NCBI GenBank assembly: GCA_001783565.1
Contig: MFMT01000023.1
Span: 1-42,512, forward strand
DNA: 42,512 bases
Direction: 5' to 3'
From: Candidatus Kaiserbacteria bacterium RIFOXYD1_FULL_42_15
GTDB taxonomy: Bacteria; Patescibacteriota; Minisyncoccia; Phycocordibacterales; UBA918
Below are positions 2,754 to 40,777 of the stretch, in pieces. The position numbers were made by a program, and so were the translations under genes. Below the pieces are notes generated by a model. The model did not search any database. It was not told the DNA's origin and saw only the letters and a list, made by a program, of their open reading frames with translations. Within the stretch, counting starts at the first letter, position 1. Every line of letters begins with the position of its first letter.

Positions 2754-2835
2754 ATCTATGCATTATAACGCTGAATGTCTAAATGTGATAATAAACAACA
2801 ACTTTACCTTGAAAACAGGAGTATAATATTAGTAT

Positions 2836-3735
2836 ATGGAAAAAAATACAGCCAAGCACTTTGTGCTACAACTCGGGTCACTTATTAGTTTATATTTATC
2901 TTTATCATTTTTAATCACACTTTTATTCGGAATAATTAATCTCACGTTCCCTAATGCCAGTGAGGGCTATTGGGTTATCGAGAGTGCCAGCAATAGCGTG
3001 CGTCTTGGTATTGCAATGGTGATAGTGTTTTTTCCAACTTACTTAGTACTAACCAGAGCGGTCAATCGCACCAGGCGCTCTGATACAGACCACGCTTATT
3101 TAGCACTAACCAAATGGCTAATTTATCTGTCACTCCTAGTCGGCGGTGGAATTTTGCTTGGTGATTTAGCTGTTGTCATTATGACTTTTCTTAATGGTGA
3201 CATAACCATGCGCTTTATCTTGAAGGCCGTCACTATGTTGGTTATCATCGGCTTCGCCTTTTACTACTACCTTCTAGACGCCCAGGGGTACTGGATAAAG
3301 AACGAGAAGAAATCAGTCGGGTATGGTGTTGTCGTTACAATCATTGTTTTGGCCGTAATTGTATTTGGATTTTTCCATATTGCCACGCCAGGCATGGTTG
3401 CTGCTATGAAATTGGATGAAAAACAAATTCAAGACTTGCAACAAATCCAATGGAAAATAGAATCAGTAATCACCACTACTTCAGCGCTACCGACAACTCT
3501 AGAAGATGCTTTCGCTGGGTTTGCCATACCAACAGCGCCGGCAGGGCGAGAAGATTATACTTACCAAGTAACTGATGTCGGGTTCCAACTTTGTGCCACT
3601 TTCTCGCAGGCCAGTGAGGGTCAAATGGGTGTAGATATTTACGCCAACCCAGTTGATTTAACTAGACCGGTTAAAAATGCCGACAGTTGGCAATACAAGG
3701 CCGGACGTTACTGCTTTGAACGAATCGTAAAGTAG
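2836..3735 (+). CDS. integral membrane protein, DUF5671-like N-terminal region
   Basis: 299 aa with about 5 predicted TM helices in the first 190 aa and a soluble C-terminal domain. TATAAT at 2822-2827 lies 8 nt before the ATG. Confidence 0.5.
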   Translation: MEKNTAKHFVLQLGSLISLYLSLSFLITLLFGIINLTFPNASEGYWVIESASNSVRLGIAMVIVFFPTYLVLTRAVNRTRRSDTDHAYLALTKWLIYLSLLVGGGILLGDLAVVIMTFLNGDITMRFILKAVTMLVIIGFAFYYYLLDAQGYWIKNEKKSVGYGVVVTIIVLAVIVFGFFHIATPGMVAAMKLDEKQIQDLQQIQWKIESVITTTSALPTTLEDAFAGFAIPTAPAGREDYTYQVTDVGFQLCATFSQASEGQMGVDIYANPVDLTRPVKNADSWQYKAGRYCFERIVK

Positions 3736-3752
3736 TATAATTTAGTCTGAGT

Positions 3753-3788
3753 GTTAAGGCCGGCGCATGGCGCCGGCCTTAACTTTTT
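3753..3788 (+). terminator. rho-independent terminator
   Basis: A perfect 13-14 bp GC-rich stem (G)TTAAGGCCGGCGC-ATG-GCGCCGGCCTTAA(C) is followed by TTTTT. Confidence 0.85.
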
Positions 3789-3856
3789 ACATAGCATAAA
3801 ACTCATGGCATACTAATGAATACATTATTTATTTTCCAGTAAGCGTTTGGCGGAAT

Positions 3857-6727
3857 ATGCATAAAAAAATCAATCACCAAGAAATTGAAGCAAAGTGGCA
3901 AAAGCAGTGGGCAAATAGCGCGATCTATCACACTACTGAAAATCCTGACAAACCAAAAACCTTCGTGCTCGACATGTTTCCTTATCCATCGGGAGAAGGT
4001 CTTCATGTTGGACATCCCAAAGGATATATTGCCACCGACATCTACTCTCGTTTCAAACGCATGACGGGACATGAAGTACTTCACCCAATGGGATGGGATG
4101 CTTTTGGCTTACCGGCCGAGAACTACGCCATCAAGAATAAAGTACATCCCCGAGTGGCAGTAGAAAAAAATGTTGCGCGCTTCAAGGAACAGCTTGGTGT
4201 TCTTGGTTTTGATTATGATTGGGATAGAGAAATAAATACTACCGACCCTGCCTACTATAAATGGACGCAGTGGATTTTTCTACAACTGTTTAAAAAGGGG
4301 TTGGCTTATGAGTCGTATGAACCTATCAACTGGTGCCCTGGTTGTCAGACAGGATTGGCAAACGAGGATCTCGAGAGTGATGGCACTTGTGAGCGTTGCG
4401 GTAGTGTAGTTGAAAAGAGACCGATGCGTCAGTGGGTATTAAAGATTCGTGAATATGCGGACCGAATGCTCGATGACCTAGACATGCTTGAGTGGCCAGA
4501 ACATATCAAAGAAGCTCAGCGTAATTGGATAGGCAGGTCAAAAGGAGCAGAGATAGATTTCAAACTTTTCTCACCTAGGACATCCGATGTCCTAGGTGAG
4601 AATGAAGAAATTGGCGAAGTTACAGTTTTTACGACTCGACCAGATACTCTCTACGGGGCGACTTATTTAGTGCTGGCTCCCGAACATCCATTTATAGAAA
4701 ATGAGATAGAGAAAATTGAAAATAGAAAAGAAGTGGATGATTACATTGCTAAAGCTAAACAAAAAAATGAACAAGATCGCCTTGATGCTACCAAAGAAAA
4801 GACTGGGGTGAAATTGGAAGGTGTTACAGCAATCAACCCAGGAAGTGGAGAAGAGATACCGGTATATATTGCGGATTATGTGCTCGCCAGTTATGGCACC
4901 GGCGCCATTATGGCTGTCCCAGCACATGATGAACGTGATTTTGAGTTTGCTACTAAATTCGGTGTTGAGATAAAGCAGGTGGTAGCACCATTCATTAAAG
5001 CTGATGGTGAGGACTCACCCAGAGATGGTCTTGAGACTTTAGAAAGACCCTGTATAGACATAATTATTGAGCATCCAAATAATGGTACTTTCTTAATACA
5101 GAAAGAAAAGGATGGGGATAGAAACCTTATACATTTTGTAGGAGGCGGTGTTGATGGAGAGGATGATATGACAGCTGTGACTAGAGAGCTCTTAGAGAAG
5201 ACAGGATTTTCCGAATTTGAATTTATGTCGAATAAACCAGTATTTACTACAAAATCCATTGGTTATCGTCATAGTAAGAACAAGAATCAGCAAGGCGTTA
5301 GTAATTTTTATCACATTAAACTAACTGGTCTGGGGCAGGTACGTTCGGAGATAGAAGATGGTAAACATACAGTTGAGTGGCTGACGAGAGAAGAGATTAC
5401 AAAACAAATAACCTGGGCCTGGCATGCAAGATCTTGGGCTGCCTTGAATGGAGAAATGGTATCCACCAATTTGGGAGTTTTAGTAAATTCTGGAGAATTT
5501 GACGGAATGAATTCAGAGGAAGCTAAGAAAGCTATCGTTGAAAAAGTTGGTGGGCGGATGACTAATACTTATAAAATTCGTGATTGGGTGTTTTCACGTC
5601 AGCGTTATTGGGGAGAGCCAATTCCGATTGTTCATTGTGAGAAATGTGGACCAGTAGCTGTTCCTGAAGATCAATTGCCAATAACTCTACCAGAAGTCGA
5701 ACGCTACGAGCCGGCTGGAGACGGACAGTCGCCACTCTCAACTATTCCCGACTGGGTCAACACCACTTGTCCGCAGTGTGGAGAAGCAGGCAAGCGCGAG
5801 ACCAACACAATGCCACAGTGGGCGGGCTCGTCTTGGTACTACCTACGCTACATGGATCCAAAAAATGACCGAGAGCTAGTATCAAAGGAACGTGAAAAAT
5901 ATTGGGCACCGGTTGATATTTACGTTGGCGGTGACCATGCCGTGCGCCACCTTATTTACGCGCGGTTCTGGCATAAATTCTTGTATGACATTGGTGTTGT
6001 ATCTACCGTAGAACCATTCCAACGACTCGAATTCCTTGGTTTTATTCTAGCTGAAGACGGACGAAAAATGAGTAAGCGGTGGGGAAATGTTATCAATCCT
6101 GACGACATTGTGGCGTTAGTGGGGGCAGACAGTTTGCGTGTCTATGAAATGTTCATGGGTCCGTTTGAAAATACTATCGCCTGGTCCAAAGACGGACTGG
6201 CGGGGGCCTGCCGTTTCTTGGAACGAGTTAATGGATTAAGTGCCCACCTGACTGACAATGAATCAGAATCAGTACAGAGACAACTTCATAAGACTATTAG
6301 GAAGGTGGTCGAAGATATTGAAAGCTTCAAATTCAACACGGCCGTCAGTGCCATGATGATATTTATTAATGAAGCGGAAAAGAATGGGTTGTCACAAAAG
6401 ACTTTTGAGCAATTCTTGCAAATTCTGGCACCATTTGCACCACACTTGACTGAGGAACTTTGGCAAGAACTCGGTCACAGCAACTCCATTCATCTGGAGT
6501 CGTTCCCTGTCGCAGACGAGGAATTAGCCAAGGACACAACAGTTGAGATTGGAGTTCAGATTAATGGCAAACTACGTGGCAGTATTGAGGTAGCTCCTGA
6601 TGCCCCGGAGAGTACTGTAACCGACATGGCCAAGGGCAATAGTGTAATCGCCAAGTACCTTGATCAGGCGGAGATTAAGAAAGTGGTCTACGTACCCGGA
6701 CGCATTCTTAATTTCATTATTAATTAG
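3857..6727 (+). CDS. leuS: leucine--tRNA ligase with an extra Nudix-like inserted domain
   Basis: 956 aa. It has the HIGH motif (HVGH), the CP1 editing motifs TTRPDT and GTGAIMAVPAHDERD, KMSKR, and WYYLRY. An extra ~140 aa lies between EFATKFGVEIKQVV and GVLVNSGEFDG. Confidence 0.95.
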   Translation: MHKKINHQEIEAKWQKQWANSAIYHTTENPDKPKTFVLDMFPYPSGEGLHVGHPKGYIATDIYSRFKRMTGHEVLHPMGWDAFGLPAENYAIKNKVHPRVAVEKNVARFKEQLGVLGFDYDWDREINTTDPAYYKWTQWIFLQLFKKGLAYESYEPINWCPGCQTGLANEDLESDGTCERCGSVVEKRPMRQWVLKIREYADRMLDDLDMLEWPEHIKEAQRNWIGRSKGAEIDFKLFSPRTSDVLGENEEIGEVTVFTTRPDTLYGATYLVLAPEHPFIENEIEKIENRKEVDDYIAKAKQKNEQDRLDATKEKTGVKLEGVTAINPGSGEEIPVYIADYVLASYGTGAIMAVPAHDERDFEFATKFGVEIKQVVAPFIKADGEDSPRDGLETLERPCIDIIIEHPNNGTFLIQKEKDGDRNLIHFVGGGVDGEDDMTAVTRELLEKTGFSEFEFMSNKPVFTTKSIGYRHSKNKNQQGVSNFYHIKLTGLGQVRSEIEDGKHTVEWLTREEITKQITWAWHARSWAALNGEMVSTNLGVLVNSGEFDGMNSEEAKKAIVEKVGGRMTNTYKIRDWVFSRQRYWGEPIPIVHCEKCGPVAVPEDQLPITLPEVERYEPAGDGQSPLSTIPDWVNTTCPQCGEAGKRETNTMPQWAGSSWYYLRYMDPKNDRELVSKEREKYWAPVDIYVGGDHAVRHLIYARFWHKFLYDIGVVSTVEPFQRLEFLGFILAEDGRKMSKRWGNVINPDDIVALVGADSLRVYEMFMGPFENTIAWSKDGLAGACRFLERVNGLSAHLTDNESESVQRQLHKTIRKVVEDIESFKFNTAVSAMMIFINEAEKNGLSQKTFEQFLQILAPFAPHLTEELWQELGHSNSIHLESFPVADEELAKDTTVEIGVQINGKLRGSIEVAPDAPESTVTDMAKGNSVIAKYLDQAEIKKVVYVPGRILNFIIN

Positions 6728-6760
6728 TTTGTTTGAATAAAGTACCTGTGCTAGTTAAAC

Positions 6761-6980
6761 GTGGATTGCCACGTCACTCCGCTATCGCTCCATTCCTCGC
6801 AAAGACGGCCAGCGTAGCTGACCGTCGACGACTAAAACTAAAGTTTTAGTCGTCTTTACGAGTGAAACGCAGCAATCCACGTCGTCGTCCCGTCTGTCTT
6901 TGCCTGCCTGCCCTGCATGCCATGCCTGCGCATGCAGGGCAGGCATGGCATGCAGGCGAGTGGCAACGAAGCAATTTACG
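6761..6980. repeat. cluster B of the GTGGATTGC-N-CTCGCAAAGACG family
   Basis: Units are 6761-6807 (+, long form) and 6851-6880 (-). A degenerate minus unit at 6891-6979 has a nested GC-rich palindrome. A perfect 12-bp hairpin lies at 6827-6854 between the first two units. Confidence 0.85.
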
Positions 6981-7093
6981 TTTGATTAACATTGGTGTCT
7001 ATAACTATGTTGACGTATATCAATTCGCATGATATAAATACACTCACGCATTGAGCTACAAAACTCACCCATAGATTAAATACCCTTAATATT

Positions 7094-8119
7094 ATGATTT
7101 CATTCAAACCAAAACAAGTTACAAAAAAATTGCTTTCAGCTCTACCTGAACGCGCTCGTGATGTTCTCACCAAACGCTATGGTCTTGGCCAAGATAATGA
7201 AACTTACACTCTTGAATCAATTGGTCAGACTTATGGAATCACTCGAGAACGAGTACGACAGATTGAAAACTATGGTATTGCCGCTATTCGTAAATCCGCC
7301 ATTTATACAGAAAATACGGCTATGTTTGAAGAATTACGTAGTCTTATTAAACAGCTAGGTAACGGTGTTGTGGCTGAAAAAGTTTTACTTGATTCCTTAA
7401 CTAAGGATGTTGTCATTCGTAATCACCTTTATTTTCTTTTGATAATTGGTGATGCCTTCTCTAAGGGTAAAGAAAACCCTCTCTATACTAGCCGTTGGTT
7501 TACAGAAAAGAAAATTGCTGAAATAGTTGAAAAAGCACTCAAGAATGTACATGGTACTCTCAATCGAGATGACTTAATTAGTGAGCAGGAAATTCTAAAT
7601 CGTTTTCGTAATGAATTGATTGAAATCGCCGATAAACAGGACGATGAAACATTAAAGCGATGGCTGATGATTTCCAAACAAATTGGTCAAAACCCTCTTG
7701 GAGACTGGGGTCCAGCTGATAGTCCCAACGTCCGAGTAAAGGGAATTCGTGATTATGCTTATTTAGCGGTGAAGCGACATGGATCGCCAATGCATTTCAA
7801 GGAGGTTTCGGTAGCCATTAGTGATTTATTTAACCATAATGCACATGTAGCTACCACTCACAATGAACTGATCAAAGATGCACGCTTTGTTCTAGTGGGA
7901 CGTGGTCTCTATGCTCTAACTGAATGGGGATATACCGCCGGAGTGGTTAAGGATGTTTTGCGTGAAATTTTGCAAGCTGAAGGACCGCTTTCTCGTGAAG
8001 AATTGATTGATAAAGTACGTAAGGAACGATATGTTAAAGACAACACTATTGTGGTAAATCTACAGGATGCCAATCTTTTCAAGCATTTAAGTAACGGTTC
8101 TTATACACTAGCTGAATAA
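7094..8119 (+). CDS. sigma-70 region-4-like HTH plus HARE-HTH domain protein
   Basis: 341 aa. The N-terminus LPERARDVLTKRYGL...TLESIGQTYGITRERVRQIENYGI resembles sigma70 region 4. A later segment (GSPMHFKEV...DARFVLVGRGLYALTEWGY) resembles the HARE-HTH/RpoE N-terminal domain. Confidence 0.55.
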   Translation: MISFKPKQVTKKLLSALPERARDVLTKRYGLGQDNETYTLESIGQTYGITRERVRQIENYGIAAIRKSAIYTENTAMFEELRSLIKQLGNGVVAEKVLLDSLTKDVVIRNHLYFLLIIGDAFSKGKENPLYTSRWFTEKKIAEIVEKALKNVHGTLNRDDLISEQEILNRFRNELIEIADKQDDETLKRWLMISKQIGQNPLGDWGPADSPNVRVKGIRDYAYLAVKRHGSPMHFKEVSVAISDLFNHNAHVATTHNELIKDARFVLVGRGLYALTEWGYTAGVVKDVLREILQAEGPLSREELIDKVRKERYVKDNTIVVNLQDANLFKHLSNGSYTLAE

Positions 8120-8199
8120 AATTTACAATTTTGAAAATAAATAGATTACAGTGGAACAACTCTCCACTGTATTTTGTTTTAATGTACAATAGTAAATAC

Positions 8200-9525
8200 A
8201 TGGCGGATTTATTTAAGATACTACTTAGTGCGATAGCTGCTCCAATTTTGTTGGTGGTGGCATTTGTCGTTATGCGCTACACCTTTGCAATTATAGGGGT
8301 AGATTTTGGGCTGATAATATCAATTACCATCGCTTTAACTCCTATATGGTTACCGTTTGTTTTATTCTTTCTTCTCTTTGAACGCTGGATGGATTTTGTT
8401 CACTTAAAATTTTCTCTTGATAATGGACGAACGACTCTTCGTATCAAACTACCACAGGAAGTCCTGAAATCACCCGAAGCAATGGAGAGTGTATTTGCTT
8501 TAATTCACAACCCCAATAATTCAGACAATCTTTGGCAAACATACATTGACGGTCGACTACCTTTGATATTCAGTTTTGAATTAGTTTCAATTGGTGGTGA
8601 CGTGCGTTTTTATATAAACATACCTACCAAGAAAACCAAAAATCTTATTGAAGCCCAGCTTTATGCCCAATTTCCCGGCATTGAAGTTACTGAAGAGATG
8701 GTTGATTATTCATCAGAGGTGGTTTGGAATCCAAAAAAATGGGAGATGATGGTCTTCCATATTGGAAAAAAGGAAGATCAAGTGTTCCCAGTCAAAACCT
8801 ATATAGATTTTGGACTTGATAAACAGCCCAAAGAAGAACTTAAATTTGAGCCGATGGCGGCCATGCTAGAACAACTTAGTACCGCCAAGCCACATGAACG
8901 TTTCTGGATTCAAATTCTATGTAAGCCACACGTAAAGCGAAACTTTAAGAGTGGTTTTTTGAAATCCAAAGCTAGTTGGGAAGGTGATGTTTTCGCTAAA
9001 ATTAGTGAGATGTTAGGTCGTGATCCTAAAAAGAAAACTGGTCCGGTAGAATTTGAAGAACAGCCACGCTTAACTGCTGGTGAACGTGACACGGTTGCGG
9101 CTATGGAGCGCAATGCTGGTAAATATGCCTACGAAACAGCCATTCGTTATGTGTATATTACCCCATTAGGAAAATTTGATGGTAACGCTCTGTTATTGTT
9201 AAAAACATTTTCCCAGTATGACATTATTAAGCGTAACGGATTAGGTGTTCGTTGGCGTACCGACTTTGATTACAACTGGTTCTCAGATTGGTCAGGAAGA
9301 AAAAAAATGGAACTAAAGAAAAAGGAACTTGAAGATTACAAAAAGCGCGTCTATACAGTCAGAGAGCCCATATCAAGGGTGGATGAACTGAAGATATTTA
9401 CTGCCGAAGAATTGGCAACTATTTACCATATTCCGGGTAGCTCGGTTATTACCCCTGGACTATCCCGTATTCCATCAGCCAGACGTGAAGCACCGGCTAA
9501 TTTACCAGTTGAATTACCTCAATAA
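8200..9525 (+). CDS. membrane-anchored protein of unknown function
   Basis: I prefer the ATG at 8200 (MADLFKILL...) over the upstream TTG at 8131. Two N-terminal TM helices are followed by a large soluble domain (LRIKLPQEVLKSPEAMESVFALIH...). I cannot assign a family. Confidence 0.5.
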   Translation: MADLFKILLSAIAAPILLVVAFVVMRYTFAIIGVDFGLIISITIALTPIWLPFVLFFLLFERWMDFVHLKFSLDNGRTTLRIKLPQEVLKSPEAMESVFALIHNPNNSDNLWQTYIDGRLPLIFSFELVSIGGDVRFYINIPTKKTKNLIEAQLYAQFPGIEVTEEMVDYSSEVVWNPKKWEMMVFHIGKKEDQVFPVKTYIDFGLDKQPKEELKFEPMAAMLEQLSTAKPHERFWIQILCKPHVKRNFKSGFLKSKASWEGDVFAKISEMLGRDPKKKTGPVEFEEQPRLTAGERDTVAAMERNAGKYAYETAIRYVYITPLGKFDGNALLLLKTFSQYDIIKRNGLGVRWRTDFDYNWFSDWSGRKKMELKKKELEDYKKRVYTVREPISRVDELKIFTAEELATIYHIPGSSVITPGLSRIPSARREAPANLPVELPQ

Positions 9526-9544
9526 AATAAAAGTATTTAATTAT

Positions 9545-10543
9545 ATGGAGCAAACAGTAACCCCAGAAATTCCCGAGAAAAAAACAAATCAGCTCAGATT
9601 TATTTTGTTAAGCATTATAATTTCTGCTTTATTACTATCTATAATAATTTGGTATATTACTTATTTTAAAAAACCTCCAGCTGAATTTCCGGTCGGTGAA
9701 CCGATAGAGGTTACTCGAGGTATGAACATGGAAGGCATTTCGCACCTACTACAGGTGCGAAATGTTGTCCGCTCTAGTTTATTTTTGAATTTTGTTCTTT
9801 TAACTAAATATAATCCAGCCGATATTAAGGCCAGCACCTATGTTTTTTCTGAACCATTAGATGTTTTTGGTGTAGCAAAACGTTTATCGGAGGGTGATTT
9901 TAATTCCAATTTGGTCAGGTTCACTCACCGTGAAGGAGAGAGGGCACTATATATTGCCGAGACGGCTAAAAAACAGTTGGTAAATTTTGATCAAAATAGT
10001 TTTTTGAAAGAAGCTATCCCTTTGGAAGGAAAATTATTTCCAGATACGTATTTTATTCCCACAAATTATACCGCCCATGAATTGATAACCACTATGTTGG
10101 ATAATTATGAAAAAAATATTAATCCCTTGCGTGATGACATTATCAAAAGTGGCTTAACCGAACAAGAAATTATTACTTTAGCATCAATTGTTGAAAGAGA
10201 GGCAAATTCTTCAGAATCAATGGGGCTAGTGTCAGGTATTCTTCGTAATCGCTTAGAATTAGGTATGGCCTTACAGGTAGATGCCTCAATAGAATATGTA
10301 CTTGATAAAAGTTTGCAGGAACTATCTCCTTCTGACCTAGAATTAGATTCACTCTACAATACTTATAATCACCCCGGCTTACCACCAAGTCCGATTGGCA
10401 ATCCTGGTTTAGAATCAATTCAAGCGGTATTGAATCCAACCAATTCAAAATATTTGTATTATCTGACTGACTCTGAAGGTATTTTTCACTATGCTAATTC
10501 CTTTGAGGAACATAAAGAGAACATTGCTCTTTACTTGAGATAG
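9545..10543 (+). CDS. mltG: endolytic murein transglycosylase MltG (YceG-like)
   Basis: The ATG at 9545 is in frame with the 9485 ORF. It has an N-terminal TM helix plus the motifs LFPDTYFIP, LASIVEREA, LQVDASIEY and YNTYNHPGLPPSPIGNPG. Confidence 0.85.
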   Translation: MEQTVTPEIPEKKTNQLRFILLSIIISALLLSIIIWYITYFKKPPAEFPVGEPIEVTRGMNMEGISHLLQVRNVVRSSLFLNFVLLTKYNPADIKASTYVFSEPLDVFGVAKRLSEGDFNSNLVRFTHREGERALYIAETAKKQLVNFDQNSFLKEAIPLEGKLFPDTYFIPTNYTAHELITTMLDNYEKNINPLRDDIIKSGLTEQEIITLASIVEREANSSESMGLVSGILRNRLELGMALQVDASIEYVLDKSLQELSPSDLELDSLYNTYNHPGLPPSPIGNPGLESIQAVLNPTNSKYLYYLTDSEGIFHYANSFEEHKENIALYLR

Positions 10544-10572
10544 TTAAAAAATATGGTAGCGTACTATGAATT

Positions 10573-11637
10573 ATGAACAAACAAATAACCGTTTTTGTTG
10601 GTCTTTCCGGTGGAGTAGACTCATCGGTAGCCGCTCTGCGTCTTTTAAAGCAAGGATATAAAGTGGTCGGAGTTTTTATCAAGGTTTGGCATCCGGATTT
10701 TTTGGTTTGCAACTGGGAAGCCGAGCGACTTGACGCCATGCGAGTGGCCGCCAAACTAGGCATTCCATTTTTAACCTGTGATGCTATCAATACTTATCGT
10801 GACGCTGTTGCTAAATATTTTATTGAAAGTTATCAAGCCGGACGAACACCAAACCCTGATGTTATGTGCAACAAGGAAGTCAAATTTGGAGTTTTTATGG
10901 ACTTTGCCAAGAAACGTGGTGCAGACTTTGTGGCTACTGGACACTATGCCCAAAATAAGTTTATAAACGGCAAGCACTGGCTTGCTCGTGGTGTTGATAC
11001 TAACAAAGATCAAAGTTATTTTTTGTGGACACTAACTCAGTCACAGTTAAAACATATTCTGTTCCCAGTTGGCAATTCATCTAAGGATGTAATTCGTAAA
11101 GAAGCGACTAAGGCAGGTTTGATAACTGCCCAAAAGAAAGACAGCCAAGGTGTTTGTTTTCTTGGTCATATTGATATTCCTGATTTTCTTTCACACTACA
11201 TTGATCTTAAACCAGGTCATGTTCTCGACGAGGTTGGTAATGTAGTAGGTGAACACCAAGGTGCCTTTGTCTACACCATTGGTCAAAGACACGGCTTTAC
11301 TCTAAATTCACCAGATAGTAATCGCGGACCACATTATGTTGTAGAAAAAGATCTATCAAAAAACCATTTGGTTGTGTCTGCGATTAAACCAATCATAAAT
11401 ACTAAAGAGAATCTAACACTTAGTGAGGTGCAATTAAATAATTCTCTACCGAAACAAGGAGAAATCCTAGCACAGACTCGTTATCGTCAAAATCCATTTT
11501 CAGTTACGGTAGCAATAAATAATGACAAGGATAAACTCTTATTAACAATAAATGAAACCACTGAAGTTCCAGCTATTGGTCAGTCCTGTGTATTATATCA
11601 AGGTGAAATTGTGCTAGGAGGTGGTATTATTTCATAG
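10573..11637 (+). CDS. mnmA: tRNA 2-thiouridine(34) synthase MnmA
   Basis: 354 aa. It has the PP-loop VGLSGGVDSSVAA, plus DQSYFLW and QGVCFLG. Confidence 0.93.
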   Translation: MNKQITVFVGLSGGVDSSVAALRLLKQGYKVVGVFIKVWHPDFLVCNWEAERLDAMRVAAKLGIPFLTCDAINTYRDAVAKYFIESYQAGRTPNPDVMCNKEVKFGVFMDFAKKRGADFVATGHYAQNKFINGKHWLARGVDTNKDQSYFLWTLTQSQLKHILFPVGNSSKDVIRKEATKAGLITAQKKDSQGVCFLGHIDIPDFLSHYIDLKPGHVLDEVGNVVGEHQGAFVYTIGQRHGFTLNSPDSNRGPHYVVEKDLSKNHLVVSAIKPIINTKENLTLSEVQLNNSLPKQGEILAQTRYRQNPFSVTVAINNDKDKLLLTINETTEVPAIGQSCVLYQGEIVLGGGIIS

Positions 11638-12482
11638 TGTCAATTTCTGTTCTTAAAGCTGATGGAACTACTGAATACTTCAAAATTGAGAAGTTGCGTC
11701 GTTCCTTACGTCGAGCAGGGGCAAACAATCAAGAGATTGTAACTGTTATTGAGGCGGTTGAATCTCACTTGTATGATGGTATTAAGACTCAAGAAATCTA
11801 TCGTTTTGCTTTTGAAAGATTACGACAAGAGGGAATACCAGCAGCCACCAGATATTCTCTTCGTCGGGCCTTATTTGGTTTAGGCCCAACTGGTTTTCCG
11901 TTTGAACGTTTTTTGGGCAGGATGTTTAAGGCCGAAGGTTACAACACCGAAACCGGTATTATTATAAGTGGTCATTGTGCCACACACGAAATAGATATTG
12001 CTGCCTATAAAAGTGACCATAGTTTTATTGGTGAAGCAAAATTTCATGCCAGACCAGGTATGAAGTCCGATCTTCAGGTAGCCCTTTATTCTTATGCTCG
12101 GTTACTTGATTTACGTGATGCGCGTATTTGTGTTGATGATGTCTGCGGAGTGAAAGAATTCTGGCTAATTACTAATACCAAATTTACCACCTCGGCTGAA
12201 AAATATGGCCTCTGTGTCGGATTGAAAATGCTCAGTTGGGACTTTCCTCGAAAAAATAACTTGCATGACCGCATTGAACGGGCTAAGGTCTACCCAATTA
12301 CCGTTTTGCATACTTTAACACCATCACAGATTTCCACTCTTTTTGAACATGATGTTATCCTTTGCAGTGAGATCATCAATAATCCTCATTACTTACACAC
12401 CCTACACATAAATGAAGTTAAAGCCCAAGAAATTATTATAGAAGCAAATAACATCATAAATAATAACTCCACAAGCACCTAA
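11637..12482 (+). CDS. ATP-cone domain fused to an Mrr-like restriction endonuclease domain
   Basis: 281 aa. The GTG start shares one nt with the mnmA stop. The N-terminus VLKADGTTEYFKIEKLRRSL... resembles an ATP-cone. The middle FPFERFLGRMFKAEGY...HEIDIAAY...IGEAKFH fits a PD-(D/E)xK (Mrr_cat-like) core. Confidence 0.65.
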   Translation: MSISVLKADGTTEYFKIEKLRRSLRRAGANNQEIVTVIEAVESHLYDGIKTQEIYRFAFERLRQEGIPAATRYSLRRALFGLGPTGFPFERFLGRMFKAEGYNTETGIIISGHCATHEIDIAAYKSDHSFIGEAKFHARPGMKSDLQVALYSYARLLDLRDARICVDDVCGVKEFWLITNTKFTTSAEKYGLCVGLKMLSWDFPRKNNLHDRIERAKVYPITVLHTLTPSQISTLFEHDVILCSEIINNPHYLHTLHINEVKAQEIIIEANNIINNNSTST

Positions 12483-12572
12483 ATCTGAGTGGCTGTCAAT
12501 ATTCTTACCAAGCAGTGTTGATGTTATACTTATTAGGTAAGGATTTTATTTCAGCAATTCACAAAAAACAAT

Positions 12573-13127
12573 ATGTCAGAAAAAAAAGAAGAGACTCAAA
12601 AGACGGTAATAGCGTTTATAGTCGGTTTACTTATCGGAGGATTACTAGTTTGGGCATTTAGTGGTACCGAAAGCGTCGCACCAAAAAGTACTACTGATGA
12701 CAAGGTTGACACCACTGCCACAACTGATAGTAAGTCAGACGATACAAAAACCGCTACTATAGATGAGAAAAAAATAGTAGTTACACCAGAGCCTACAGCC
12801 GTCCTACCAGTAGGAGATGGTTCAGTTAAGGTTGCAGATGACCAGGCAGCTGGATCAAGAGTTGCTTTAGCATCAGCTACATTCCCAATCAAAGAAGGTT
12901 GGATTGGTGTTCGTGACTATGACAATGGTAATCTAGGTGGTCTTCTCGGCGTTGTTCGCTTTAGTGAGGAACAAGGTTTGGTACCAACCACAATTATCCT
13001 GCAACGGGCAACTGTAGCCGGAAATACTTACGCAGTTATTTTCTATACCGAAAGCGGCGACCGTAAATTCAGTCTGGCTAACGATGTTCAGGTTGATAAG
13101 ATTTTTGCCACCTTTACTGCCAAATAA
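12573..13127 (+). CDS. membrane-anchored extracytoplasmic protein, unknown function
   Basis: 184 aa. An N-terminal TM helix (VIAFIVGLLIGGLLVWAF) is followed by a T/D/K-rich linker and a beta-rich C-terminal domain. Confidence 0.5.
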   Translation: MSEKKEETQKTVIAFIVGLLIGGLLVWAFSGTESVAPKSTTDDKVDTTATTDSKSDDTKTATIDEKKIVVTPEPTAVLPVGDGSVKVADDQAAGSRVALASATFPIKEGWIGVRDYDNGNLGGLLGVVRFSEEQGLVPTTIILQRATVAGNTYAVIFYTESGDRKFSLANDVQVDKIFATFTAK

Positions 13128-13145
13128 AACCTGCTGAGATGTTTG

Positions 13146-13176
13146 AAAAATCCCTCGCATGAGGGATTTTTCTTTA
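13146..13176 (+). terminator. rho-independent terminator
   Basis: AAAAATCCCTC-GCAT-GAGGGATTTTTCTTT: a 7-bp stem plus a T tract, 19 nt after the stop of the preceding gene. Confidence 0.7.
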
Positions 13177-13261
13177 TGGCATGGAACCAATACTAAATTG
13201 CCCTGAATTGGCGCGTCGTTGCGTTGACACTCCATTTTTTGCAATGACAAACAGTGGTAAG

Positions 13262-13386
13262 CAAACGTGGATTGCTTCACTCCGTTCGCCTGTCTGCCAT
13301 GCCTGCGCATGCAGGGCAGACAGGCAAAGACGGTTGTCTGTTCTGCCTGTTCGTCTTTGCGAGGAGCTTGTGACGAAGCAATCCAG
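13262..13386. repeat. cluster C of the GTGGATTGC-N-C(A/T)..GCAAAGACG family
   Basis: Units are 13267-13332 (+) and 13352-13386 (-). The + unit carries the GC-rich core CTGCCATGCCTGCGCATGCAGGGCAG, also seen in cluster B. Confidence 0.85.
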
Positions 13387-13456
13387 AGTCTAATAAGTTA
13401 AATCTTTCCAAGAATTGTGGGTGGTAATTGGTGAAGGTATCGGTATAATGATTGAT

Positions 13457-14251
13457 ATGGCTGATTATACAAAAAAATATAACCCAAATAGAAGTACTGA
13501 GTGGAATTACGGCGGAGACAAGTGGCGACTCTCTCGCTCTAAGATTGATTTTTTTGTTGAATGTCCTCGTTGTTTTTACCTTGATAATAAACTCGGTACT
13601 AAACGTCCCGGCTTTCCATCATTTAACTTGAATCTTGCCGTTGACGAGCTTTTCAAAAAAGAGTTTGATGTTCACCGAAAAAATAAGACCCCCCACCCAG
13701 TAATGGAGCAATACAAAATAAAGGCAGTTCCTTTTCAACATGAAAAAATGGATGTTTGGCGTGACAACTTTGTCGGTATCGAATACGCCCATCCCGAGAC
13801 TGGCATGACCGTTTCAGGCGCAATTGACGATATCTGGATAACGCCGTCCGGAAAACTTATCATTGTGGATTATAAATCAACCTCAAAAGACGGTTCGATT
13901 ACAGAACTGTCAGACAGCCCTTGGGACCAACAATACAAGCGTCAGCTCGGCGTTTACAAATGGCTGCTGGAGAAAAACGGCTTCAAGGTCGAGGATGTCG
14001 GTTACCTAGTGTATGCCAATGCCAGTAAAGATGAGGTTGGTTTTGATAACAAACTGGTTTTTGAAACCACCATGGTCCCTGTCGAGGCAGAAACGGAATG
14101 GATTGAGCCAACTTTGAAAAAAATTAAGACCTGTCTTGATGACGAACACCTACCCGCTATAGGGGAGAAGTGTGAATTTTGTCCCTATCGTGAGGCCTGT
14201 GGCAAAAAACTGCAACATATCCACGCACGCCAATTAGCTCAAAGTAAATAA
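13457..14251 (+). CDS. PD-(D/E)XK nuclease, Cas4/RecB-like, with a 4-Cys cluster
   Basis: The ATG at 13457 lies 7 nt after TATAAT (13444-13449). It has an N-terminal Cys (CPRCFYL), the core DDIWITPSGKLIIVDYKS, and a C-terminal CEFCPYREAC. Confidence 0.7.
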   Translation: MADYTKKYNPNRSTEWNYGGDKWRLSRSKIDFFVECPRCFYLDNKLGTKRPGFPSFNLNLAVDELFKKEFDVHRKNKTPHPVMEQYKIKAVPFQHEKMDVWRDNFVGIEYAHPETGMTVSGAIDDIWITPSGKLIIVDYKSTSKDGSITELSDSPWDQQYKRQLGVYKWLLEKNGFKVEDVGYLVYANASKDEVGFDNKLVFETTMVPVEAETEWIEPTLKKIKTCLDDEHLPAIGEKCEFCPYREACGKKLQHIHARQLAQSK

Positions 14252-17432: not shown

Positions 17433-19319
17433 ATGAGTGGAAATGAAATTCGTGCTAAGTTCCTGGCCTTTATGGAGTCCCGCGGTCACGCCATTATACC
17501 GTCGGCGTCTTTAGTGCCCCAAAATGACCCTTCGGTGCTTTTTAACACTGCCGGGATGCAGCCGTTAGTGCCATACCTGATGGGACAACCCCACGCGAGT
17601 GGCAGAAAGCGTATCGCCGACTCACAAAAATGTGTCCGCACCAATGACATTGACGAGGTGGGGGACAACACCCACTTGACCTTCTTCGAAATGCTTGGCA
17701 ATTGGTCTTTGGGAGATTATTTCAAACAGGAAGCCCTGACCTGGAGTTTTGAACTACTGACTTCAAAGACCGAAGGATTTGGCCTTGACCCCAAGCGCCT
17801 ATACGTCACTGTATTTCAGGGTGACGAAAACGCTCCTCGTGATGAGGAGGCCTATGTAATCTGGAAAGAAATCTTTGAAAAAGCTGGGCTCGATCCTGGG
17901 AAACGCATTTTCTTTATGGATGCAGACTCCAACTGGTGGAGCCCGGGGGACAATGGTCCATGTGGCCCAGACAGTGAAATGTTTTATGACGTGTCCGGCA
18001 CCTTAACCGAGGGGCTGACAAGAGAAGAATTTATTGCCGCTGACGACCGCCAAGACATTGTTGAAATCTGGAACGATGTGTTTATGGAGTACGAGAAAAA
18101 GGACGGTAAGGTAGTGGGGAAGCTTGCCAAACAAAATGTCGACACTGGTTCGGGCCTAGAACGAGTCACCGCCGTAGTGCAAGGGAAGAGTGATGTTTTC
18201 GCTACTGACTTGTTCGTACCAATCCTTGATAAAATTGCCGAACACAGTTCCAAAGCTGACCCACGAGCAGCCAGGGTTATTGCTGACCACATTCGCGCCT
18301 CCACTTTCTTAATCGCCGACGGCGTCGCACCAGGCAACACCGACCAGGGCTATATTTTGCGTCGCTTGATGCGCCGGGCTATTCGTTATGCTGATACTCT
18401 CGGAATGCCGGCTGGTTCACTGGTGACACTAGTACCAGTTATCGTTAATTTGTATGGTGAAGCTTATCCCGAAGTGGCCGTCAATGAACAGAATATTGCT
18501 AGAGTAATAAGTACCGAAGAGGAACAGTTCCGCAAAACATTGGAAAACGGTCTAAAACAATTTAATAAAATCACTCTGCAGATTCATATGGTCAGCAAGA
18601 TTGTTGACGGTAAAAAAGTAATTGACACTTCAGTTGCTCCGACCACTAAACAAGCCATCAGTGGTCAGAATGCTTTTGACCTATACACCACTTATGGTTT
18701 TCCAATCGAACTAACCGAAGAAATTGCCGCCGAAAAGGGTCTGGTAGTGGAGCGGAAAGGTTTTGACAAACTAATGATAGAACACCGTGACCTTTCACGG
18801 GCTGGAGCCGAGCAAAAGTTCAAAGGCGGTCTAGCTGACCATTCCGACCAAGTGGTCCAATACCACACTACCCACCACCTACTCCTTCGGGCCCTACAAA
18901 TGGTTCTGGGTGACCAGGTAAAGCAACGCGGGTCAAACATCACTAACGAGCGTCTTCGTCTTGATTTCAGCAACGACACCAAAATGACCGATGAACAAAA
19001 AACCGAAGTCGAGAAAATTGTGAACGAGAAAATCGCTGCCGGTCTGCCTGTTATTCTCAACACCTTACCAAAAGAAGAAGCTGAACAACTTGGTGCTGAG
19101 CACGAGTTCGGTGCGAAGTATCCCGATACCGTCACCGTCTACTCGATCGGTCCAGTGGGCGCCACGGTTGAAAATCCAGATTTTGCAAACGCATTCTCGC
19201 TCGAATTCTGCGGCGGCCCTCATGTTACCAACACCTCTGACATTAAAGGAATTTTTAAAATCCAAAAAGAAGAATCATCATCGGCAGGTATAAGGCGGAT
19301 TAAGGGGGTTCTCGGTTAA
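17433..19319 (+). CDS. alaS: alanine--tRNA ligase lacking the C-Ala domain
   Basis: 628 aa. It has the N-terminal FLAFMESRGHAIIPSASLVPQNDPSVLFNTAGM and the editing-domain motifs HTTHHLL and CGGPHV. It ends at ...GIRRIKGVLG, where the coiled-coil/C-Ala region normally begins. Confidence 0.93.
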   Translation: MSGNEIRAKFLAFMESRGHAIIPSASLVPQNDPSVLFNTAGMQPLVPYLMGQPHASGRKRIADSQKCVRTNDIDEVGDNTHLTFFEMLGNWSLGDYFKQEALTWSFELLTSKTEGFGLDPKRLYVTVFQGDENAPRDEEAYVIWKEIFEKAGLDPGKRIFFMDADSNWWSPGDNGPCGPDSEMFYDVSGTLTEGLTREEFIAADDRQDIVEIWNDVFMEYEKKDGKVVGKLAKQNVDTGSGLERVTAVVQGKSDVFATDLFVPILDKIAEHSSKADPRAARVIADHIRASTFLIADGVAPGNTDQGYILRRLMRRAIRYADTLGMPAGSLVTLVPVIVNLYGEAYPEVAVNEQNIARVISTEEEQFRKTLENGLKQFNKITLQIHMVSKIVDGKKVIDTSVAPTTKQAISGQNAFDLYTTYGFPIELTEEIAAEKGLVVERKGFDKLMIEHRDLSRAGAEQKFKGGLADHSDQVVQYHTTHHLLLRALQMVLGDQVKQRGSNITNERLRLDFSNDTKMTDEQKTEVEKIVNEKIAAGLPVILNTLPKEEAEQLGAEHEFGAKYPDTVTVYSIGPVGATVENPDFANAFSLEFCGGPHVTNTSDIKGIFKIQKEESSSAGIRRIKGVLG

Positions 19320-19403: not shown

Positions 19404-19483
19404 TATAATTATTGCTAGTTATCCTAAGTAGTGTACAAAAGGCGACACCAAGTGTGCTTACCTTGTATACTATATTTACTCAC

Positions 19484-20716
19484 ATGAGTTTATTTTCCTC
19501 AGGAAAAAATAATGTTCGTTTTGGAGCTCTGATTGAAATCGGTTCTGGTAGTGTTGTTGTTTCAATAATAAAATCAGATGCTACAAAAAAGAATCCAGAG
19601 ATAATTTGGTCACAACGTGAATTTGCTTCTTTAAAGTCAATCAAATCTCACGAGCAAGACGACAAAAGTATCATGGCAGTTTTAATGAACGTTATTTTAC
19701 AAGTTAATAGCACTGGCTATAAAGTACTGAAAGCTTATGACCCAAATGCACGAATAGGACATGTGCAGATTTCAATCACAGCACCATGGTCATACACCAT
19801 CAGCAAGACAATTGAATACTCAGAAGATCAAGAGTTTACTATTACGGCCGAATTAATAAATAACCTAATAGCCACCGCCCAAAAGAAGGTTGACAAAAAC
19901 AAAACAGAAAAGGAAATCGCCAGCGAACACGGACTGACTGTCTTAACTAGAAGTGTCACCGACATTAGGTCTAATGGTTACAAGACCACCAAGCCATTGA
20001 ATCAAAAGGCAAAAGCTATATCTATCACTCAGATTAGTGCCATCGCAGAAACAGCTATCACGGATGCTGTCATAGATTTACAGAGAAAAATACTTCCAAA
20101 CGCTAATTTGAAAACGTTCTCCTTTATGATGATGTTTCAGGCCTTGGTACGAAAATTATATCCACAAACAAATGACTTTTGCTTAATTGATGTGACATAT
20201 GAAGCTACCGAAATAGCCATTATCAGAAATGACACTCTTAAGTACTGCACCCAAACTGCTATTGGTGTAAACACTTTGGCACGAGGGTTGGCCAAAGTTT
20301 TAAGTATACCTCACGAAGAGGCACTGGCTTTTATGCGGGAGCCTTATTATTCAACAGCCCTCAAAACTCTTCCCGATAGTAAAATAATGGCCATGAAAGA
20401 AGTTTTGAAGAATTACCAAGTACAACTGGTAAAATTATTCAAAGAGACCGGTGATAATCTTTCCATACCACGGACTATGTTTTTACACGGTTCTGCGGGT
20501 TCAGACGGCATCTTACAAACACAAATGATGGATGAGGCCAAAATTGCCACCAGTTCTTCTTATGCTATATTCGAAATCTCAAGTGAGATTTTAACAAAAT
20601 CCTACACTGCTGAACAAAAGAAAACACTATTTTCTGTCACCTCAGATACCAGTGTTTTGTTGGCAGCGCAGTTTTTCCACACAAAAGAGAGTCGGGGTAA
20701 CTTTATTAGTAAATAA
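19484..20716 (+). CDS. divergent actin-like ATPase (FtsA/PilM-like)
   Basis: I prefer the ATG at 19484. The phosphate-1-like motif GALIEIGSGSVVVSI and the second motif CLIDVTYEATEIAIIRND...AIGVNTLARGLA resemble the ASKHA/FtsA fold. The assignment is weak. Confidence 0.4.
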   Translation: MSLFSSGKNNVRFGALIEIGSGSVVVSIIKSDATKKNPEIIWSQREFASLKSIKSHEQDDKSIMAVLMNVILQVNSTGYKVLKAYDPNARIGHVQISITAPWSYTISKTIEYSEDQEFTITAELINNLIATAQKKVDKNKTEKEIASEHGLTVLTRSVTDIRSNGYKTTKPLNQKAKAISITQISAIAETAITDAVIDLQRKILPNANLKTFSFMMMFQALVRKLYPQTNDFCLIDVTYEATEIAIIRNDTLKYCTQTAIGVNTLARGLAKVLSIPHEEALAFMREPYYSTALKTLPDSKIMAMKEVLKNYQVQLVKLFKETGDNLSIPRTMFLHGSAGSDGILQTQMMDEAKIATSSSYAIFEISSEILTKSYTAEQKKTLFSVTSDTSVLLAAQFFHTKESRGNFISK

Positions 20717-20740
20717 CCAGCTATACTGTACAATATACTT

Positions 20741-22078
20741 ATGACACAAAAATGGAATCTTCAAGATATCAGACCAGTCGAACCAAGACAGCGTCGCCGT
20801 TCAAGTACTATAAAAAATAGCGACCCTTCGGGTCAGTCTGATGTTATTGATACTAAGAATGGTTCAGAATTTGAGGTTTTACCATCTATATCCATTAACG
20901 ACGGCAAAAAAAAGAGTCCAAGGCAATTATTCGTGGCCATATTTATCTTTGTAGCCGTGGTGGGAACTGGTATTGGTGTTAGTGCCTTAACGGCAGGGGC
21001 AGTAATTACTTTATATCCAAAGGTTCGTGATATTAATGTCAATGCTGAATTTACCGCTCTTAATACCAAAAAAACTGACAGTTTGTCTTATGAAATAATG
21101 ACTATTGATGCTACAGGCGAACGACAAGTAACTGCCACTGGGCAGGAACAAGTGAAGAGTCAAGCTACAGGTGAAATTGAAATTACTAAAAGCACACCGG
21201 GAACCGAACGTCTAATTAAAAACACTAGATTTGCTACTACTGATGGTTTAGTATTTAGAATTCAAGAATCGGTGGTTATACCAGGAGCAGTAAAGAACGA
21301 GACTGGGGAAATGGTACCTGGAACCGTCAGAGCACAGGTCTTTGCCGATGAGGCCGGTGAAAACTATAATTTGCCTGCTAATACAATTCTTTCAGTCCCA
21401 GGTTTTAAGGAAGATGACTATACTGAACTTTACGATTCTATCAAAGCATCTAACTTGATGGCTTTTACGGATGGTTTTGACGGACCAAAGTTTATCATTG
21501 ATGAAAATGAACTTGCTACCGCTAAACAATCTTTACAGATGGAATTACGAGATACTTTAGTTGCTCGTGTGGTTAGTGAAAAGCCGGCAAATTTTACTTC
21601 TTTTGACAGCTCAATTGTTATTACTTATACAGACCTGCCTTCAGCTCAATATGGTGACACACTGGTTACTATTCGTGAACAAGCCACTTTACAAATTCCA
21701 CTTTTTAAAAATGCTGATTTTGCATCATTCATCGCCAAAGAAACAATAGTTGGCTATGATGCTAATGAATCAGTTCGGATTGATAACCTAGACACTCTAA
21801 CCTTCCTATATTCAACTGCCAGTACCTCACAAACAAATCTGGCCAATATTGATAGCTTTACCTTTAAAATATCAGGAATCCCCAAAATTGTTTGGACCGT
21901 TGATCAAGAGAGAATGAAGGTGGATTTAATTGGTATGGAAAAAACTGCCTTTCCTGGTATTTTGGGTAAATATAGTGGAATTACCAAAGGTGAAGTGAAG
22001 GTTCGTCCTTTTTGGAAACGTAGTTTCCCAGACAAACTTGACCAGATTAAAATCGTTGAAGTTTTATCAACACCGTAG
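20741..22078 (+). CDS. membrane-anchored protein, unknown function
   Basis: 445 aa. A basic N-terminus and a single TM helix (LFVAIFIFVAVVGTGIGVSAL) are followed by a large beta-rich extracytoplasmic domain. It starts 25 nt after the FtsA-like gene. Confidence 0.45.
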   Translation: MTQKWNLQDIRPVEPRQRRRSSTIKNSDPSGQSDVIDTKNGSEFEVLPSISINDGKKKSPRQLFVAIFIFVAVVGTGIGVSALTAGAVITLYPKVRDINVNAEFTALNTKKTDSLSYEIMTIDATGERQVTATGQEQVKSQATGEIEITKSTPGTERLIKNTRFATTDGLVFRIQESVVIPGAVKNETGEMVPGTVRAQVFADEAGENYNLPANTILSVPGFKEDDYTELYDSIKASNLMAFTDGFDGPKFIIDENELATAKQSLQMELRDTLVARVVSEKPANFTSFDSSIVITYTDLPSAQYGDTLVTIREQATLQIPLFKNADFASFIAKETIVGYDANESVRIDNLDTLTFLYSTASTSQTNLANIDSFTFKISGIPKIVWTVDQERMKVDLIGMEKTAFPGILGKYSGITKGEVKVRPFWKRSFPDKLDQIKIVEVLSTP

Positions 22079-40690: not shown

Positions 40691-40777
40691 TCATGTGGTG
40701 GATGTAGCGATATGCGATCAACCAGCAATACTCATTTCGAAAACTAAATTAAATACCAAACATGATAGAATTACTGT

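Follow-up and report, generated by a model that had tools for sequence, protein, structure and literature searches.

We analysed a 42,512-nucleotide contig of Candidatus Kaiserbacteria bacterium RIFOXYD1_FULL_42_15 (hereafter the window), in which the gene for the leucyl-tRNA synthetase (LeuRS; leuS) encodes a complete Nudix-fold domain inside CP1, the editing domain of the synthetase (Table 1). The 956-residue protein is deposited as OGG88309.1 from the same organism, with leucine--tRNA ligase as its sole name, and an identical protein is present in several public assemblies. It scores 1002.8 bits against TIGR00396, the bacterial LeuRS equivalog leuS_bact, and so passes the cut-off of 548.4 bits; the match falls in two stretches that are divided by the insert. 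Comparison with the LeuRS of Thermus thermophilus (1h3n) gives an E value of 2.7e-221.

An earlier note, made from this DNA sequence alone, had stated that the editing and synthetic-site motifs of the enzyme are intact. Alignment with Thermus LeuRS and with 43 relatives bears this out for HVGH, KMSKR, TTRPDT and GTGAIMAVPAHDERD. The majority of residues in the last two motifs are invariant and the others are at least 90% conserved, so that the CP1 editing signatures TTRPDT and GTGA.MAVP.HD are kept. On the far side of the insert G540 is invariant, and conservation in the same relatives is 90% or more for L542, S545 and F548. Judged by these motifs, all of which are intact, the host enzyme should be fully functional.

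Between the conserved flank ending in ...EFATKFGVEIKQVV and GVLVNSGEFDG, where the earlier note had counted about 163 residues, nucleotides 4985-5473 translate to exactly 163 (APFIKADG...MVSTNL). The alignment with Thermus LeuRS breaks at query residue 377 (Thermus residue 363) and resumes at query residue 539 (Thermus residue 380), and some 17 loop residues of the Thermus enzyme are swapped for these 163 in the window protein. Because the LeuRS editing-domain model (PF13603), which matches residues 222-379 over profile positions 1-143 of 185, is interrupted at position 143, we place the insertion inside CP1, about 16 residues past D358, the conserved Asp of the editing site (in AVPAHD). The flanking LeuRS segments, residues 376-381 and 540-542, are predicted by AlphaFold2 (AF2) to form beta-strands on either side of the domain, and from these the insertion is read as lying at the tip of a beta-hairpin. 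A free-standing Nudix protein of 143 residues (P0129) is co-linear with the insert, its residues 2-141 pairing with residues 389-530 of the window LeuRS, which argues that the inserted piece is equivalent to a whole small Nudix protein together with short linkers.

The Nudix box itself is encoded by nucleotides 5141-5209 (GGGVDGEDDMTAVTRELLEKTGF). As the earlier note had read it, and as the translation shows, this sequence fits the pattern GX5EX7REUXEEXGU with a single exception, Lys in place of the second Glu of the EE pair. The three Glu residues of REUXEE bind the catalytic metals. The window copy thus lacks a complete box, whereas the family to which it belongs carries one.

Table 1. Positions in the window of the leuS gene and of the features within it.
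Feature	Positions	Strand	Evidence
LeuRS open reading frame (ORF), bacterial type, 956 residues	3857..6727	+	ORF list, TIGR00396, match to 1h3n
HIGH signature of the synthetic site (HVGH, residues 50-53)	4004..4015	+	Invariant in 43 aligned relatives; pairs with HMGH of Thermus LeuRS
CP1 editing domain, N-terminal part (residues 222-376), with TTRPDT (259-264) and GTGAIMAVPAHDERD (347-361)	4520..4984	+	PF13603
Exchanged cassette; DNA not detectably similar to that of the syntenic leuS gene in contig L007	4960..5484	+	blastn
Insert of 163 residues (377-539) holding the Nudix domain; read as the tip of a CP1 beta-hairpin	4985..5473	+	Translation, Pfam, Thermus alignment, AF2
Nudix module proper (residues 389-531), with linkers of about 12 and 8 residues	5021..5449	+	Co-linear with free-standing P0129
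Nudix box G429-X5-E435-X7-R443-E444-L-L-E447-K448-T-G450-F451	5141..5209	+	DNA and translation
Codon AAG for K448, in place of the second Glu of the EE pair; one transition from GAG	5198..5200	+	
CP1 C-terminal part back to the catalytic body (GVLVNSGEFDG...YKIRDWV, residues 540-578)	5474..5590	+	Pairs with Thermus LeuRS from residue 380
KMSKS-type loop (KMSKR, residues 737-741)	6065..6079	+	Invariant in 43 relatives; pairs with the MSKS residues of the Thermus KMSKS loop

The gene stands in a normal chromosomal leuS locus. The order of genes (YchF, a small reverse-strand ORF, DUF5671, LeuRS, a sigma-70 region-4 protein, DUF8128, YceG, MnmA) is common to alleles with and without the insert, and the window also carries the genes for AlaRS, S13, S11, S4, RpoA and L17.

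Nudix fold and family of the insert

The earlier note had proposed a profile search and a structural superposition as checks of the Nudix assignment, and both returned a Nudix domain. Pfam NUDIX (PF00293) matches the insert alone at an E value of 1.9e-9 and 38.1 bits and the whole protein at 33.7 bits, compared with a gathering score of 21.1; the match covers residues 398-525 and profile positions 4-128 of 134. The AF2 model of the insert (residues 370-548, built on an alignment of 35 sequences) has a mean predicted local distance difference test score (pLDDT) of 91.5 and a predicted template modelling (TM) score, pTM, of 0.85. In the full-length LeuRS model, with a pLDDT of 80.5 and a pTM of 0.67, the Nudix blocks score 83-94; taking both models together, pLDDT over the Nudix domain is 83-98. 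RELLEK is borne by a helix at residues 437-449 in the AF2 model.

Foldseek comparison of the insert model with the PDB gave 441 matches at E<=0.001, and the best 50 of these 441 are all Nudix enzymes. The top match is 2azw from E. faecalis (E 1.7e-9, target TM 0.80), and the other top matches include YmfB/NudJ, NudI, the Aquifex hydrolase of diadenosine tetraphosphate (Ap4A), RppH and ADP-ribose pyrophosphatases. A sequence profile of the inserts finds the same Nudix set among PDB sequences, with 2azw at 1.3e-13, and the Ap4A hydrolases 3i7u, 4ijx and 1f3y are among the structural and sequence matches. These results confirm that the insert is a complete Nudix-fold domain inside LeuRS and, together with the intact LeuRS motifs, they support the view of the earlier note that it is an added module and not a decayed gene.

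Assignment to a named family is less sharp. An equivalog scan of the inserts against NCBIfam reached no named Nudix family at threshold, Ap4A-hydrolase families included. The RppH/NudH models (NF001936 and related) were missed at 24.8-25.1 bits (cut-off 118), and those for the MutT 8-oxo-dGTP diphosphatase (NF008044, TIGR00586) at 13.9 bits for the window insert (cut-off 148). Below threshold the commonest matches are RppH, then MutT, YtkD and NudI. For 24 of 35 inserts the named family that matches best is RppH, always far under threshold, and MutT models give weak matches only, to 13 of the 35. PHROGs returned a generic MutT/NUDIX match and nothing more specific (E 2e-4).

Other identities for the insert were considered and rejected. 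An intein or other self-mobile protein element is not consistent with the Pfam result, which is NUDIX only and includes no Hint domain, and the residues of a splice junction are absent (the insert starts with APF and ends in STNL, followed by G). A self-mobile DNA element would be expected to leave traces, and the cassette borders have neither repeats nor duplications. A known anti-phage defence protein was rejected because PADLOC-DB defence models matched neither the insert nor the whole protein at E<=0.01.

Conservation and exchange among relatives

The sets of relatives used here come from a full-length search and an exhaustive HMMER search, since a word-index search of proteins queried with just the insert returned only one relative, and all compared sequences are metagenomic assemblies. 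Taxonomic spread was taken from the source names, which for the 120 best LeuRS homologues listed by the full-length search are Paceibacteria, Kaiserbacteria and Parcubacteria; a single-protein scan of GTDB genomes gave two loci. Aligning the orthologues, as had been proposed, places a Nudix insert of at least 143 residues at the same site in 84 of these 120 homologues. Most of these inserts are 143-170 residues long, and one (in P0016) is a tandem double insert. Where no Nudix domain is present, the site holds 6-48 residues in 35 homologues and 81 residues in one.

Column conservation was counted over 85 inserts, the window's own included, whose mean pairwise identity is 28%. E444 and E447 are each invariant (85/85), G430 is kept in 84, and position 448 is Glu in 83. 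Position 435 is Glu in 66 inserts and Gln in 15, and position 443 is Arg in 67 and Ala in 13. Inserts with Ala at position 443 need not be dead, because the AEFGEE box of nvTRPM2 is active (PMC6461439). Lys at position 448 is confined to two of the 85, namely the window protein and a fragmentary copy of it; the E-to-K change remarked on earlier is thus real in the window but is not a trait of the family. In the subtype of the window, compared over 31 other sequences, conservation reaches at least 85% at 51 of the 163 insert positions; T432V and E448K are the window's only two departures from the consensus at these positions. The conserved Glu residues look like the signature of a working hydrolase, which suggests that the insert family is catalytic, and the window copy looks like a recent, isolated single-residue exception at a metal-binding residue.

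This conservation bears on the possibility that the domain is a neutral passenger, either junk in a permissive loop or the product of chimeric metagenome assembly. The loop is certainly variable in length, with 6-81 residues in relatives that lack the Nudix domain; the sequences are all metagenomic; and the LeuRS-Nudix gene of one syntenic locus (contig L001) has at least five frameshifts. A passenger or artefact is nevertheless extremely unlikely in our view, given that the identical protein recurs in several assemblies, that the architecture is common to 84 of the 120 homologues listed, that conservation is strong at the catalytic residues and at 51 positions of the subtype, that the fold is predicted with confidence, and that the reading frame is intact.

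Body identity of the synthetase (mean 75%) and insert identity are uncorrelated (Spearman -0.14, 3403 pairs). Of 83 proteins, 59 have as their nearest neighbour by body a LeuRS with another insert type or with none. Inserts at this one site fall into at least eight sequence types that are 16-26% identical to the type-A insert of the window; the types were drawn by single-linkage clustering at 40% identity, which chains types and makes their number approximate. The type-A sequences at hand have 67% DNA identity, with synonymous sites saturated. Between the window protein and P0003 (type D) the bodies are 94% identical and the inserts 26%. The bodies of P0010 (type A) and P0040 (type C) are 98% identical, and those of P0032 (type B) and P0075 (no insert) 94%.

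The same discontinuity is seen in the DNA. Compared by blastn with L007, the contig of P0003, the window is 89.6% identical over 2792-4959, has no match over 4960-5484, and is 88.8% identical over 5485-6903 and 97.2% over 6956-13178. Identity at third codon positions is 35% in the insert, compared with 51-99% in 100-codon blocks of the body. Two other contigs, L010 and L011, are 95.7% identical upstream and 97.9% downstream of about 500 unalignable nucleotides. L007, with the insert, and L009, without it, are 99.8% identical over 8.1 kb from inside leuS (about codon 635) onward; identity between them is about 70% in the 5' two-thirds of leuS and in the gene upstream. In these alignments the insert behaves as an exchangeable cassette, gained, lost or replaced on the time-scale of strain divergence. 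The borders of the exchange lie in conserved LeuRS flanks (FAxKFG... and ...DGM(N/S)SEEA), with no repeats or duplications there, and the likely mechanism is homologous recombination in these flanks, not the action of a self-mobile element.

Mosaicism reaches beyond leuS, and the whole region is recombination-prone. Relative to L007 and L009 the window is a mosaic of DNA blocks at 70-90%, 97% and 84-89% identity (2792-6903, 6956-13178 and 13444-14223, respectively). The divergent leuS block takes in the upstream gene for a DUF5671 membrane protein (2836-3735), which could itself be a target of diversifying selection. An intergenic repeat of about 46 nucleotides resembling repetitive extragenic palindromes (REP-like; TGGATTGC-N28-CTCGCAAAGACG) occurs in the window in both orientations, in clusters at 2117-2290, 6762-6890, 13214-13361, 38497-38670, 40571-40691 and 41651-41825; its core, CGCAAAGACG, has 17 matches at no more than one mismatch, against 2.0 expected. 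The second and third of these clusters fall precisely on the borders of the block that is 97% identical to L007 and L009, where blocks of different divergence meet. Just downstream of leuS, in an AT-rich intergenic region, lies a GC-rich, near-perfect palindrome of about 56 nucleotides (6900-6957; GCCTGCCTGCCCTGCATGCCATGCCTGCGCATGCAGGGCAGGCATGGCATGCAGGC), and the homology to L007 and L009 is interrupted at this palindrome (6903-6956).

In L001 (JGI 3300056599, a 993-kb contig), the syntenic LeuRS-Nudix gene occupies 5227-8057. Its frameshifts fall within 2.8 kb, the genes in the other 10 kb or so of the neighbouring locus are intact, and its Nudix box is canonical (RELEEETGF). Either the gene has become a pseudogene, or the locus is polymorphic and its consensus poor. 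Upstream of leuS in this contig, at a distance of about 2.5-5 kb, there are genes for serine recombinases.

The studied site is not the only one. The exhaustive HMMER search with the insert yielded 96 proteins, which were compared with the window LeuRS by BLAST and their sites mapped by Pfam and motif landmarks. Nudix domains occur at three places in LeuRS (window numbering): at the start of CP1 or before it (about residues 212-255), at the studied site, and after the second zinc knuckle (about residues 635-647). P0016 and P0126 have tandem Nudix pairs, and P0132, P0139 and P0163 have three Nudix domains in a single LeuRS. Other domains are found as well: P0114 is a LeuRS homologue with a PF06821 serine-hydrolase domain, and in P0116 LeuRS is fused to the downstream sigma-70-r4/HARE-HTH protein. 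Free-standing Nudix relatives of the inserts are 143-190 residues long, and a six-frame search of the window with the profile hidden Markov model found no second Nudix gene.

Proposed function of the module

We consider it probable, if only just, that the insert is an autonomous accessory Nudix pyrophosphohydrolase, tethered to LeuRS as a carrier and exchangeable, whose copy in the window is impaired by E448K. In the mechanism we propose, a Nudix pyrophosphohydrolase of the free-standing type (about 143 residues plus short linkers) would have been spliced into a surface beta-hairpin of CP1. Because the family conserves the metal-binding glutamates, we infer that the module would work on its own, hydrolysing a nucleotide-type substrate in an Mg2+-dependent reaction. 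The enzyme may be of the house-cleaning or dinucleoside-polyphosphate type, as the nearest sub-threshold likenesses of the module are to RppH/NudH and to MutT/NudI, which are pyrophosphatases of nucleoside triphosphates or dinucleoside polyphosphates. LeuRS would provide a constitutively expressed carrier, with the module standing outside the chemistry of aminoacylation and editing, and homologous recombination in the LeuRS flanks would swap the module for other Nudix types or remove it. We favour this account because the catalytic residues are conserved, the insert is dispensable, many types occupy one site, several sites are used, and Nudix domains co-occur with a Ham1 domain.

Some observations weigh against it. 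Nearly all of the long relatives among the 96 HMMER proteins are LeuRS or fragments of LeuRS. The LeuRS of P0052 adds a Ham1/ITPase domain (residues 246-353), before CP1, beside its Nudix domain, and this pattern of LeuRS-bound Nudix and Ham1 domains hints at a LeuRS-specific functional link that goes beyond a mere carrier. The similarities that suggest the substrate class are weak, the window insert falling short of the RppH cut-off by a wide distance. Finally, the precedent for inactivation is a double EE-to-KK mutant, and a single E-to-K change could keep residual activity.

That precedent comes from NUDT9 and nvTRPM2, whose REFGKK and AEFGKK mutants are inactive, yet fold and bind ADP-ribose (PMC6461439). 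E448K takes away one of the three Nudix-box Glu residues in the window allele, and by analogy this copy is predicted to be strongly impaired in hydrolysis but still folded, and probably still able to bind its ligand. The same change could instead point to a non-catalytic, nucleotide-binding or regulatory module, which would serve as a metabolite sensor modulating LeuRS, on the model of NUDT9-H in vertebrate TRPM2. K448 in place of a metal-binding Glu, the retention of ADP-ribose binding in mutants that have lost catalysis, and the good maintenance of the remainder of the window domain are all consistent with such a role. We regard it as very unlikely, however, as the change is confined to the window lineage; 83 of the 85 inserts keep the full Glu triad, with E444 and E447 invariant, which is a signature of catalysis, and dispensability between near-identical strains speaks against an integral role.

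An accessory hydrolase would be independent of the chemistry of its host. Alternatively, the Nudix domain could be coupled to that chemistry, hydrolysing in cis either Ap4A and diadenosine triphosphate (Ap3A), formed from Leu-AMP and ATP, or non-cognate aminoacyl-adenylates. The earlier note had named Ap4A and aminoacyl-adenylates among the possible substrates. The domain does sit within the editing domain, and its LeuRS-specific association extends over many lineages and sites. RppH/NudH is the commonest weak likeness among the inserts; RppH also cleaves Ap4A and diadenosine pentaphosphate (Ap5A), and the PDB entry 7sp3, 'RppH bound to Ap4A', is among the fold matches, and the three Ap4A hydrolases named above count among the structure and sequence matches. 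On the other hand, the insert is dispensable, since alleles with and without it are found in genomes that are 99.8% identical downstream, and the occupation of one site by at least eight types so distant from type A argues against one fixed, LeuRS-tied substrate. The domain also occurs in at least two other loops, so that its position with respect to the active sites follows no single conserved geometry. Aminoacyl-AMP, moreover, is an acyl-phosphate and not a nucleoside diphosphate-X, the established class of Nudix substrate, and no Ap4A-hydrolase family was reached at threshold. Presence and absence in near-identical genomes, replacement by unrelated Nudix domains and the use of other LeuRS sites make coupling the less likely explanation, and we judge it to be unlikely.

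The turnover of the cassette also raises the question of whether it is a built-in protection or 'immunity' device under diversifying selection, in which the various Nudix and Ham1 modules would each destroy a different nucleotide-like inhibitor of LeuRS or conflict-related nucleotide and would be replaced in the course of an arms race. In its favour, genomes that are otherwise 97-99.8% identical differ at this locus by cassette replacement, presence/absence polymorphism and mosaic divergence, and one site has kept several ancient cassette types. The adenylate mimic agrocin 84/TM84 is a toxin known to act on LeuRS, and against aminoacyl-nucleotide toxins there are dedicated detoxifying enzymes, such as the GNAT MccE2 and the HIT hydrolase MccH (PMC8323819). 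The NCBIfam model NF040702 (IleRS with an N-acetyltransferase domain) shows that fusions of aminoacyl-tRNA synthetases with other enzymes exist. Against these points stand the lack of PADLOC matches and the fact that phosphoramidates of the TM84 type are atypical as substrates of Nudix enzymes. The mosaicism also covers neighbouring genes, with block edges that coincide with REP-like repeats, so the region may simply be recombination-prone, and selection could in fact be acting on the upstream DUF5671 gene, which belongs to this divergent block. We consider a protective function quite unlikely. Equally doubtful, at this stage, is its broader form, in which LeuRS of Kaiserbacteria and Paceibacteria would be a chassis for exchangeable nucleotide-hydrolase cassettes that are kept diverse by selection, for example as a defence of the synthetase against nucleotide-mimic inhibitors or other nucleotides involved in conflicts.

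Aminoacyl-tRNA synthetases are among the most conserved enzymes, and, to our knowledge, the domain architecture of the bacterial enzymes is usually regarded as fixed. In the present case a complete further enzyme domain sits within the proofreading domain of LeuRS, an essential enzyme, and related LeuRS proteins carry up to three copies. A full-text literature search on LeuRS or other aminoacyl-tRNA synthetases with Nudix domains, including taxa of the candidate phyla radiation, found no paper on this architecture. The Pfam combination of LeuRS and Nudix is visible in precomputed annotations of public sequences; the sequences are therefore public and the architecture apparently undiscussed. 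A synthetase with an added enzyme domain is of a known kind, and what is unexpected is the exchange of the cassette and its multi-site, multi-copy pattern. If the modules are active, bacteria of the candidate phyla radiation, with their tiny genomes, would have a route by which accessory nucleotide hydrolases are expressed and exchanged with no gene of their own. If the modules interact with substrates or inhibitors of LeuRS, they would add a new layer of translation quality control or protection, and if their diversity is indeed kept by selection, they would represent an unrecognised form of accessory-gene 'island' inside an essential gene. Natural alleles with the insert, without it, with different inserts and with E448K exist and can be compared biochemically.

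Surroundings and comparison with known systems

Directly downstream of leuS in all related loci is the gene for the sigma-70 region-4 protein, which in one database entry is fused to LeuRS. In the window this protein has 341 residues (7094-8119) and the sigma-70 region-4 domain only; relatives show a faint HARE-HTH. The AlaRS (17433-19319) comprises a catalytic core and the second additional domain in 628 residues, and is much shorter than a typical bacterial AlaRS of about 875 residues. A 281-residue protein (11637-12482) combines an ATP-cone with an AF1548-like, nuclease-like C-terminal domain, and two adjacent large ORFs of 434 and 445 residues (19412-22078) have no Pfam match at E<=1e-5. 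An Rfam scan gave no match anywhere in the window, with no leader RNA or T-box upstream of leuS, and the window contains no tRNA genes.

Canonical LeuRS enzymes with CP1 (T. thermophilus 1H3N and 2BYT, E. coli 4AQ7) have the same domain order as the window protein and the same HIGH, KMSK and editing motifs. They differ in having about 17 CP1 loop residues (Thermus 363-380) in place of the Nudix segment, and no solved LeuRS has a domain there. Small Nudix hydrolases such as 2AZW, NudI, YmfB/NudJ, RppH/NudH and the Aquifex Ap4A hydrolase share the alpha/beta/alpha fold and the Nudix helix of the insert (target TM 0.65-0.80). Their sequence identity to it is 14-20% only, and the window domain differs from them in being embedded in another enzyme and in having REUXEK where they have REUXEE.

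The NUDT9-H domain of TRPM2 is likewise a Nudix domain built into a bigger protein whose function is unrelated; in some lineages it is catalytic, in others its box is degenerate. It is a C-terminal fusion and a ligand sensor, whereas the LeuRS Nudix domain is internal, has a family box of the catalytic kind, and is exchanged between strains. In NadM-Nudix (NMN adenylyltransferase/ADP-ribose pyrophosphatase; NF003785 and NF003786) a Nudix domain is fused to a nucleotidyltransferase, and one insert weakly matches these models; the NadM nucleotidyltransferase has the class I synthetase-like (HxGH) fold. That fusion is end to end and follows a logic of NAD metabolism, whereas the LeuRS case is internal and its similarity is below threshold. 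In architecture, which is the only basis of this comparison, a further parallel is the IleRS of NF040702 ('ileS_w_GNAT'), also a class Ia synthetase with a small-molecule-modifying domain. There a GNAT domain is joined to IleRS; here a Nudix domain is housed within LeuRS.

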